A stretch of 64,000 nucleotides of DNA, taken from sequence record NC_103192.1; one strand, written 5' to 3'. Source of the DNA: a phage. How positions within the stretch are numbered: position 1 is the first letter of the stretch; every line of letters begins with the position of its first letter. The position numbers and the translations under genes were made by a program. Below are positions 61,857 through 64,000 of this stretch, piece by piece. The notes beneath the pieces were generated by a model, which was given only the letters and a program-made list of their open reading frames with translations, did no database searches and was not told the origin of the DNA.

Positions 61857-63226
61857 TGGAAAAAGGGCAGTATGATGTAGGCACAGATGCTGCCCTCGTT
61901 GCAATCATGAGTGGTGAGAATGTCTTCGTTTCAGGACCTGCAGGTTGTGGGAAGACGTATCTCATCAACATGATCCAGTCAATGTATGGAGACTCTTGCA
62001 TAACGGTTGCCCCGACAGGGGTAGCCGCTTTAAACGTTAATGGAGCAACAGCACACCGAACATTCGATCTTGCAGCAGGTGTGAGCATGGAGTCGGACTG
62101 GACCGCAATAAGGGCAAAAACAGCAAAGCCTTTGAAAAGCAAGGCATTTACCATCCTAATTATCGATGAAATCTCTATGATCCGTGCTGATAAGTTTATA
62201 GAGATGGATAGGAAACTCCGCTTCCTTCGAAAAAATGACAAACCTTTCGGAGGCATACAGGTCATATTGTTTGGCGATTTTTACCAGGCACCTCCTGTTG
62301 TCTCTTCTATGGAGAAGGAAGCCTACTTCAACTTCTACCATACGGACCTGTGTTGCTATACCGAATCTTGGAAAGAGCTTGACCTCCACAACATAGCCCT
62401 AGTAGATCAGTTCCGACAGGAGTCTATTCGATTTGCCACAATGCTCAACTGTGTTCGTGAGGGTCGTCGCATAAAAGAGGTTGTAGCAGAACTTAATGCT
62501 CGCTGTTACAAAGGCGGTGTACCAACAGACGCTCTCACAATTTGCGCTACCAACAAACAAGCGGAGGAAGTGAACAGAAGGTTCTATGATGCCATCAACG
62601 CCCCAGAGAAGGTATACACTGGTGAAATGAAAGGTAAGTTTCCCTCCACCCTGCCAGTTGAGCAGGAGATGAAGTTGAAAATTGGCATGAAGGTCATGAT
62701 AACCGCTAACGATGTTGACCCGACTCACAAAGTACCTTATTATGTTAACGGAACACGTGCCACAATTGTTAAATTTAAGAACAAGGCGGTGGTGGTAGAG
62801 CTTGAAGATGGAACACAGGTTGACATAGAGCAGAGGTTGTGGGAGAATAACGAGTATAAGCCATCTCAGAGATACAACATTGCAGAAAGGAAGATGGAGA
62901 AGTTTATAGAGAGGGTAGTGATTGGGTCATACAAGCAACTTCCTCTGAAATCTGGGTACGCCGTAACATCTCATAAAAGTCAAGGACTTACGCTAGATTG
63001 TTACAACCTAGACCTTGGAAAGAACGGGGCTTTCTCTCCTGGGATGACGTATGTTGCTTTGAGTCGAGTTAAGACAATACAAGGAATAAACTTGTTGCGT
63101 CCACTAAGAGAAGTTGACATTATTGTTGACCCGCGAGTCGTAGAGTTTTACAATACAACATTCCCTGACTTAGACAAAATTGTCAGGAAAGATTTTGAAA
63201 CCAGAACTGAAGAGGGGGACGTATGA
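61856..63226 (+). CDS. SF1B DNA helicase (Dda/PIF1/RecD-like)
   Basis: Walker A GPAGCGKT, Walker B IIDEISM, motif ILFGDFYQAPPV. Confidence 0.65.
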   Translation: MEKGQYDVGTDAALVAIMSGENVFVSGPAGCGKTYLINMIQSMYGDSCITVAPTGVAALNVNGATAHRTFDLAAGVSMESDWTAIRAKTAKPLKSKAFTILIIDEISMIRADKFIEMDRKLRFLRKNDKPFGGIQVILFGDFYQAPPVVSSMEKEAYFNFYHTDLCCYTESWKELDLHNIALVDQFRQESIRFATMLNCVREGRRIKEVVAELNARCYKGGVPTDALTICATNKQAEEVNRRFYDAINAPEKVYTGEMKGKFPSTLPVEQEMKLKIGMKVMITANDVDPTHKVPYYVNGTRATIVKFKNKAVVVELEDGTQVDIEQRLWENNEYKPSQRYNIAERKMEKFIERVVIGSYKQLPLKSGYAVTSHKSQGLTLDCYNLDLGKNGAFSPGMTYVALSRVKTIQGINLLRPLREVDIIVDPRVVEFYNTTFPDLDKIVRKDFETRTEEGDV

Positions 63227-63564
63227 GTTTGTGGAGAAATATAGTTAACTACGTGTGCGGCAATCCAACTCCTGAAGAGAAGGATGTTGTGATTCACGAT
63301 TTTACTAAAAGATCTCGTGAAAAAGATCTACTGCTAACAAAGGTGACTGATAAAGATCCTGCAGTAGGGGACTGGGCAGGTTTTGCGTTCACATCGGACA
63401 AATACACCTTTAACAAAGGTGACTATCTTGTTGTGGATTTTAACGAGGACATCGAGGGTGCTGAACCTTACTATCAGACCCTTATCGTTGCAGGGTGTGT
63501 TAATCTCTCTGCAGGTATGCACAGTTTGATTCTTTTTGAGCTTGACTCTGAAGACCTCCAGTAG
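63223..63564 (+). CDS. hypothetical protein
   Basis: 113 aa, GAGGGGGA RBS, ATGA overlap with helicase gene. Confidence 0.4.
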   Translation: MSLWRNIVNYVCGNPTPEEKDVVIHDFTKRSREKDLLLTKVTDKDPAVGDWAGFAFTSDKYTFNKGDYLVVDFNEDIEGAEPYYQTLIVAGCVNLSAGMHSLILFELDSEDLQ

Positions 63565-63625
63565 TAAGATGTGAGTATAAAGGGGAGGCACTCCTCCCCA
63601 CAAAAACTAAGGAGAGCACCAAACG

Positions 63626-64000
63626 ATGAGTAAAACCAAATTAGAACTTACCTGGATAGGTAAAAACGAGCGCAAAAAGTTAGAGCCGCACATTTTGTTA
63701 GAAGATTCTAGCAAGTCTTACCACAGCCAGAAAGTGACCGAAAACGATATTTTTGATAATAAACTGATTTTTGGAGATAACTTATTAGCATTGAAGGCGC
63801 TAGAGCAAGAGTATGCAGGCAAAGTGAAGTGTGTTTACATAGACCCACCATTCAATACTGGAAGGGCTTTTGAGCACTACGATGATAGCCTTGAGCATTC
63901 CATTTGGCTGGGCTTAATGAGGGATAGGTTAGAAATAATTCGTAATCTTCTAAGTGATGATGGGGTAATATTCGTTCACTTAGATGATTGCGAGATGGCG
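63626..64000 (+). CDS. N6-adenine DNA methyltransferase, Type III Mod-like (3' end outside window)
   Basis: N-terminus LTWIGKN...LIFGDNLLALK...KVKCVYIDPPFNTG...HYDD...HSIWLGLMRDRL matches the Mod-type layout with DPPF/Y motif IV. Confidence 0.65.
   Translation, partial: MSKTKLELTWIGKNERKKLEPHILLEDSSKSYHSQKVTENDIFDNKLIFGDNLLALKALEQEYAGKVKCVYIDPPFNTGRAFEHYDDSLEHSIWLGLMRDRLEIIRNLLSDDGVIFVHLDDCEMA

Follow-up and report, generated by a model that had tools for sequence, protein, structure and literature searches.

A Type III Mod-like adenine methyltransferase gene of an rV5-like coliphage, captured from a cellular system without its C-terminal domain

The window analyzed in this work, that is, the whole stretch of 64,000 nucleotides of the phage record NC_103192.1, ends inside a gene whose product, as supported by profile, sequence and fold comparisons, is a beta-class N6-adenine DNA methyltransferase that stands alone and derives from the Mod subunit of a Type III restriction-modification system. 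Comparison with its relatives in phages and bacteria shows that the gene is part of a cellular mod gene taken up by the phage, and that it is an orphan, that is, a Mod-type methylase without a restriction partner. Taken as a whole, we consider it probable, although far from certain, that it is a stand-alone accessory methylase that was captured, lacks both the C-terminal domain and Res, and pre-marks the phage DNA against the parental system. The features of the window that are relevant for this analysis are the following:

63223..63564, + strand: gene for a 113-aa hypothetical protein, orthologue of rV5 gp231, on the upstream flank
63542..63570, + strand: candidate sigma-70-like promoter, TTGACT-17-TAAGAT, 9/12 match, from a motif scan
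63582..63599, no strand assigned: G+C-rich intergenic hairpin, GGGGAGG-CACT-CCTCCCC, part of the phage insertion site
63609..63614, + strand: AAGGAG ribosome-binding site, 11 nt upstream of the ATG at 63626
63613..64000, + strand: segment of bacterial origin, 92.8% nucleotide identity to E. coli mod (locus L083, 8987-9377)
63626..64000, + strand: Mod-like N6-adenine methylase gene, first 125 codons, orthologue of rV5 gp230 and RudolfGeigy bas52_0070
63647..63667, + strand: LTWIGKN, conserved start of the Mod N-terminal region, aligning with EcoP15I Mod ~52-70
63842..63853, + strand: catalytic motif IV DPPF (within DPPFNTG), aa 73-76 of the ORF

Translation of positions 63626-64000 on the plus strand gave 125 codons with zero stops, starting at the ATG at 63626 and with the frame open past the window edge; the product starts with MSKTKLELTWIGKNERKK, contains VYIDPPFNTGRAF internally, and ends in HLDDCEMA at the edge. 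The D-P-P-Y/F form of motif IV is typical of N6-adenine amino-methyltransferases. The Pfam profile PF01555 (N6_N4_Mtase) matched residues 67-124 with its model positions 1-58 (E = 3.2e-11), and the PADLOC MTase_III model PDLC03636 spanned residues 1-125 (E = 7.4e-71, vs. 5.8e-20 for the best Type II PADLOC model on the same 125 residues). The ORF and its methylase motifs are thus real and far above chance. In the scan for promoters and terminators near the start, the counts were about those expected from shuffled sequence, and the sites are given as candidates only. No tRNA genes were found within the 64-kb window.

The first-pass annotation had proposed a Type III Mod-like adenine methyltransferase from the N-terminal layout of the product, with LTWIGKN followed by DPPF. 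The top PADLOC models were all MTase_III, both for the 125 residues and for the full-length relative described below, and the nearest solved chains by sequence were the Mod subunits of H. pylori (6k0w), EcoP15I (4zcf), and Mbo45V (7dsu). Residues 2-88 of the ORF aligned with residues 52-138 of EcoP15I Mod, where the counterpart of LTWIGKN (~52-70) borders the N-terminal domain (aa 14-60), a part of the Mod dimer interface (PMC4490356). For the fold comparison, the parent protein from E. coli, 96% identical, was modelled (pLDDT 83, pTM 0.76), and the best match of this model was EcoP15I Mod (4zcf_A, E = 1.7e-22), with other Mods next. These profile, sequence, and fold matches supported both the identification and the layout that had been proposed.

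The last 3 kb of the window presented 90-98% nucleotide identity to 116 phage records, nearly all of them from Vequintavirus, and the genes upstream are orthologues of rIIA, rIIB, and a PIF1-like helicase together with the 113-aa ORF. By these comparisons the window belongs to a Vequintavirus, an rV5-like E. coli myovirus. Sixteen records labelled as Campylobacter phages (MG0656xx: C5, C7, C9, A112b, and others) matched the same 3 kb at 90% or more, the five of them that were listed being ~98% identical, as E. coli Vequintaviruses are; in addition, the E. coli "plasmid" CP057073.1 in PLSDB is 137,565 bp long, the size of a phage genome, and carries the same 441-aa gene. These host or replicon assignments are probably mislabelled.

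The 125 residues of the ORF were identical to the start of bas52_0070 of Escherichia phage RudolfGeigy, which is, like rV5 gp230, 1326 nt long and encodes 441 aa; with this length the stop codon of the window ORF would lie near 64951. Since the window stops at codon 125, whatever follows in the gene was judged only from the ~98%-identical relatives. In the 441-aa relative, PF01555 covered residues 67-393, with a long central insert that corresponds to the recognition domain, motif I (FGGSGTT) was located at ~aa 366-372, and PDLC03636 matched with E = 6.9e-205 over its positions 2-444 of 575. The order of motifs in these relatives is that of the beta class, namely IV-VIII, the recognition domain, and then X and I. 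The first-pass annotation would have abandoned its proposal for an ORF truncated shortly after position 64000; in the relatives the ORF goes on to 441 aa and includes both the recognition domain and motif I, although a C-terminal domain of ~130 aa is missing. The gene is already known as an annotated accessory gene of rV5-like coliphages: rV5 gp230 (YP_002003732.1) and its orthologues are annotated as "putative adenine methyltransferase" or "Type III R-M methylation subunit," the rV5 annotation of 2008 already points out that the product resembles the amino-terminal part of an adenine methylase from bacteria, and more than 80 rV5-like genomes have been deposited with the gene annotated.

The gene matched full-length and in a single piece in all the Vequintavirus-type records listed (34/34). 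An ORF stopping just past position 64000 was considered and rejected: the first homologue search, with the 125-aa query, had returned short fragments only (180 and 193 aa), and these came from frameshifted gene copies in two metagenome contigs, with 1-nt indels in homopolymer runs. In one of the two contigs a second gene was split as well, so that both signs are as an assembly error would give. Neither contig is the genome of the window and, being only 96-97% identical to it, they are uninformative about it.

Two alternatives had been left by the first-pass annotation, an orphan protective methylase or a part of a larger carried system such as Type III R-M or BREX, and it had called for a look downstream for Res or PglZ-type genes. 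This look was taken in the annotated relatives, where the gene is followed on its 3′ side by three small ORFs, a Dcm-like C5 methylase, a primase/helicase, and a DNA polymerase, rV5-type genes with neither Res nor PglZ among them and with no PglZ/BrxC-type genes annotated beside the methylase; 83 related records covered this 5.4-kb stretch to 80% or more. The cognate Res of E. coli found no homologue by tblastn among 50,697 phage records, where a single weak helicase match occurred in a Vibrio phage; in the same way no cognate Res was found in Vequintavirus records, and neither a Res nor an SNF2 homologue was found within the window. No BREX model was present among the 21 PADLOC matches of the 125 residues, nor among the best 25 of the 58 matches of the full-length relative. 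The absence of a cognate Res from the phage records and from the surroundings of the gene in its relatives indicated that the gene is an orphan, and the larger carried system lost its ground. The Dcm-like C5-cytosine methylase, also an orphan, lies in RudolfGeigy at L001:14216-14980, ~1.3 kb past the end of the mod gene and outside the window; it was found three small genes 3′ in all the relatives examined, including those without the Mod-like gene.

Homology between the phage and the E. coli mod gene ran from 13 nt before the ATG to ~9 nt past the phage stop. The captured segment comprises ~1.36 kb of mod, from 13 nt before its start to ~codon 451, placed between two phage genes (the 113-aa gp231 orthologue and the next downstream gene bracket the insertion site) and standing under pre-existing phage intergenic signals. 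The AAGGAG at 63609-63614 coincides with the 5′ junction between phage sequence and captured bacterial segment. Near the other end the phage gene lacks 11 nt of the bacterial gene and the frame shifts at ~codon 439 of the donor (...KDK, then SDQ and TAA); due to this frameshift the phage product ends after 441 aa, and past the deletion the homology persists for ~25 nt, reaching the ATG with which the next phage gene starts. The G+C content was 38-41% over the insert vs. 44-48% in the flanks.

Around 30% of the Vequintavirus genomes lacked the gene (navn, SophiaRose, ECML-10, phiWec196, and others) and presented a clean empty site, in which the next gene follows directly on the same hairpin and ribosome-binding site and starts with the same ATG (navn, L088:3445-3506, vs. 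window 63565-63625). These phages are natural gene-negative controls. The hairpin at 63582-63599 was therefore kept in phages without the gene; in a more distant Vequintavirus-like contig (L085:9345-9400), the segment with the hairpin and the ribosome-binding site was present on either side of the methylase gene, and this doubling suggests an insertion structure different from, or older than, that of rV5-type genomes. Short matches were found at the junctions, AAA-N-GATGA in the phage and CAGAAATG at either end of the donor segment, which are compatible with a microhomology-mediated recombination.

The scan of bacterial genomes for homologues returned 80 loci, the closest being those of Catenovulum agarivorans (95% aa and 92.7% nt identity) and of a gammaproteobacterial MAG. 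Among complete E. coli genomes, 24 of 5426 carried a chromosomal copy of mod, ~94.5% identical in nucleotides. The identity between the phage gene and the E. coli chromosomal mod was 93.7% over 1363 aligned nucleotide positions, and the E. coli Mod (WP_024226319.1, 568 aa) was ~96% identical to the phage protein over the first ~438 codons. The E. coli gene is part of an island adjoining tRNA-Sec (selC; L083:4115-13464), which contains a small HTH protein, a DrmD-like SNF2 helicase (964 aa), AbiD, a hypothetical protein, Mod, and REase_III; the 568-aa Mod matched positions 1-572 of the 575 of PDLC03636, and the adjoining REase_III has 912 aa. In the 44 cellular loci that were examined in detail, a full-length Res homologue was located just 3′ of mod in 42 (one exception was a contig edge) and an SNF2 helicase 5′ of mod in 38. 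With Res and SNF2 present at these frequencies, the parent is a genuine Type III system plus an extra helicase. MANTIS (Gao_RL) was considered as the parent system and discarded, as it uses an AAA+ ATPase, a co-regulator, a methylase, and a helicase-nuclease, and not SNF2-Mod-Res. No named description of an SNF2 helicase together with a Type III arrangement was found in a literature search.

The order SNF2 (DrmD-like) helicase, Mod, and Res is conserved in the cellular module, and the variable slot between helicase and mod holds defence genes (AbiD in E. coli, Abi_2 and AIPR in locus L004, and Kiwa KwaA/KwaB in locus L087). In Methyloprofundus (L022) and Methylophaga (L024), Res and SNF2 were ~97% identical to those of the E. 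coli island L083, whereas the best segment of Mod reached only ~50% identity; these values indicate an exchange of recognition-domain alleles in an otherwise near-identical, widely travelled island. The dS between the mod genes of E. coli and Catenovulum was only 0.11. In L087 (4810-6588), mod was split into ORFs of 452 and 139 aa exactly at the border between core and C-terminal domain, with the Res beside it intact; the split may be due to a frameshift or an error of sequencing, or the C-terminal polypeptide may be naturally separate.

The phage proteins ended at 441-447 aa, without the ~130-aa C-terminal domain of all the intact cellular homologues measured (472-672 aa, n = 73). None of 150 phage records covered 80% or more of the full-length Mod, and the 86 near-identical phage records all ended at residues 438-443. 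Two other phage forms were found, one in the more distant Vequintavirus-like contig, with a different tail (P0128, 447 aa), and one in an otherwise unrelated phage contig in which only the methylase gene is Vequintavirus-like (P0173, 444 aa, 86-87% nucleotide identity). In three phage forms or contexts the homology to the bacterial mod ended near codons 431, 446, and 451, in all cases just past the conserved GGGGFRYY end of the core. Four parts are distinguished in EcoP15I Mod: the N-terminal domain, the methylase core, the recognition domain, and, at aa 539-644, the C-terminal domain. The first two hold the dimer together, Mod2 is active as a methylase on its own, and one protomer (ModA) contacts Res extensively with its C-terminal domain (PMC4490356). 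Judged by position, the phage proteins stop exactly where an EcoP15I-type C-terminal domain would begin. A family profile of 30 sequences aligned only the N-terminal region, the core, and the recognition region to PDB Mods, and a model of the isolated C-terminal domain (pLDDT 90-97 in its core) had no Foldseek match below E = 0.037; a role of the missing domain in Res docking is thus suggested only by its position and its co-occurrence with Res. The recurrent loss of this domain is a modest new detail.

A bolder reading, which we regard as rather unlikely, is that phages repeatedly capture mod and trim it at the same border, the C-terminal domain being a liability: a full-length phage Mod would bring the host Res onto the phage DNA, and the trimmed form would pre-mark the genome and might also hinder the host enzyme by site occupancy or by formation of mixed dimers. 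If this were true, a Mod without its C-terminal domain would constitute a distinct and recurrent class of counter-defence, and not an incidental orphan methylase.

With regard to function, the dN/dS ratio was 0.144 between RudolfGeigy and rV5, 0.066 between RudolfGeigy and the L085 contig (dS 0.48), and 0.06-0.11 between the phage and E. coli genes, and the DPPF and FGGSGTT motifs are intact in the phage protein. The values of 0.07-0.14 among phage copies argue for a working protein. The central variable stretch (~aa 180-330) presented only three conservative substitutions between the phage and E. coli proteins; with recognition domains so nearly identical, both enzymes probably share their target sequence.

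As a phage counter-measure to restriction, orphan methylases are textbook knowledge, and the likeliest role that we infer for this one is the pre-methylation of phage DNA against the parental system. The phage protein would dimerise like Mod2 and hemimethylate adenine, on one strand of a short asymmetric site, in replicating phage DNA, and the loss of the C-terminal domain would keep it from joining the host Res in a restriction complex. Virions would then leave every host with the mark of the parental SNF2-Mod-Res system of E. coli and, the progeny being already marked, would escape that system at the next infection. This would be the "Trojan horse" strategy known from orphan methylases that mobile elements carry (PMC12707154). 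In the BASEL study (PMC8594841), Vequintavirinae were reported to be exceptionally sensitive to the restriction systems under test, among which the cognate SNF2-Mod-Res system was not included; in view of this sensitivity any protection by the gene would be narrow, and its absence from ~30% of Vequintavirus genomes indicates that it is dispensable. The literature found on rV5 gp230 or Vequintavirus methylation consisted of annotation-level mentions, with no methylome or restriction data. What is added here is the donor system, the exact capture junctions, the presence/absence polymorphism, and the removal of the same domain in several phage lineages. Since natural pairs of gene-positive and gene-negative phages (RudolfGeigy and navn) and E. 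coli strains with the parent island exist, both protection and the coupling between the Mod C-terminal domain and Res are readily testable, with a bearing on host-range prediction for therapeutic Vequintaviruses.

In our judgment it is extremely improbable that a larger defence or restriction module carried by the phage (Type III R-M, BREX, or similar) starts with this gene and continues past the window edge. The window cannot show what comes after position 64000, Res does follow the cellular homologues in 42 of 44 loci, and in a temperate Lactobacillus phage a restriction subunit is encoded near a long Mod-like gene; however, the ~98%-identical relatives continue with the small ORFs, the Dcm-like methylase, the primase/helicase, and the DNA polymerase, the tblastn search found the cognate Res neither in the 50,697 phage records nor in the window, and no BREX model appeared among the PADLOC matches listed. 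A functionless remnant of a bacterial gene, acquired by illegitimate recombination and whose loss is pending, would explain a truncated copy with a frameshifting 11-nt deletion that is missing from many relatives and frameshifted in two metagenome contigs, in a phage group broadly sensitive to restriction (PMC8594841). Nevertheless, we find this very unlikely given the dN/dS of 0.07-0.14 between phage copies with dS up to 0.48, the full-length single-piece matches in 34/34 of the Vequintavirus-type records listed, the intactness of all catalytic motifs, and the clean removal of a whole domain at the end of the core in three independent forms; the metagenome indels, in homopolymer runs and accompanied by another split gene, look like assembly errors.

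The remaining readings grant the protein an activity of a different kind. The methylase could serve phage development (timing of gene expression, replication, or packaging) rather than restriction evasion, and Dam-type methylation does serve P1 packaging. The gene stands among early and replication genes (rIIA/rIIB, helicase, primase, and polymerase), and regulatory roles of phage orphan methylases have been noted in reviews (PMC12707154); on the other hand, ~30% of close Vequintaviruses do without the gene, with a clean empty site, which makes an essential developmental role unlikely, and a recognition domain so similar to that of a host restriction system points to mimicry of the mark of that system, so that we hold this reading, too, to be unlikely. 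Instead of or besides a protective methylase, the truncated Mod could be an anti-restriction protein acting by site occupancy or mixed dimers with the host Mod. The N-terminal and core regions that it keeps are 96% identical to those of the host Mod and correspond to the regions forming the EcoP15I dimer interface, whereas the C-terminal domain, which in EcoP15I contacts Res (PMC4490356), was lost at three different junctions, suggesting selection against it. This argument is purely inferential and likens the domain to that of EcoP15I by position, the profile aligning other regions only; moreover, a mixed dimer keeps one host C-terminal domain and could still bind Res, and a pure decoy has no need of catalytic and cofactor motifs conserved under purifying selection. 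We therefore see only a small chance for it, slightly below that of the developmental role.

rV5 gp230 and RudolfGeigy bas52_0070 share with the window the upstream synteny (rIIA, rIIB, PIF1-like helicase, and 113-aa ORF) and 98% nucleotide identity; no difference between the genes is detectable in the window, the other 316 codons lying outside it. The E. coli Mod WP_024226319.1, with near-identical copies in Catenovulum agarivorans and the gammaproteobacterial MAG, resembles the phage protein in having a nearly identical recognition domain, but it has a C-terminal domain of ~130 aa and a Res gene directly after it, whereas the phage copy has neither. EcoP15I Mod (4zcf) shares with the phage protein the beta-class order of motifs, an aligned N-terminal region and core, and the position of the recognition domain, although identity is only ~18-20% and EcoP15I works as Mod2Res1. 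Among the large lytic myoviruses, Campylobacter phage NCTC12673 also has a Mod-derived protein, gp096 (392 aa, 37-40% identity), and the Mod-like orphans of Campylobacter phages have, like the gene studied here, no adjoining Res and no C-terminal domain; in contrast, they belong to a distant lineage, also lack the first ~40 residues, and had Campylobacter and not E. coli as donor. The Dam enzymes of T4 and P1 are, like the product of the phage gene, methylases without a nuclease partner. Their methylase class is a different one, and at their palindromic site both strands are methylated; for a Mod-type enzyme, the expectation is an asymmetric site of which a single strand receives the mark. For orphan methylases in general, a protection of DNA that leaves the cell has been proposed (PMC12707154).
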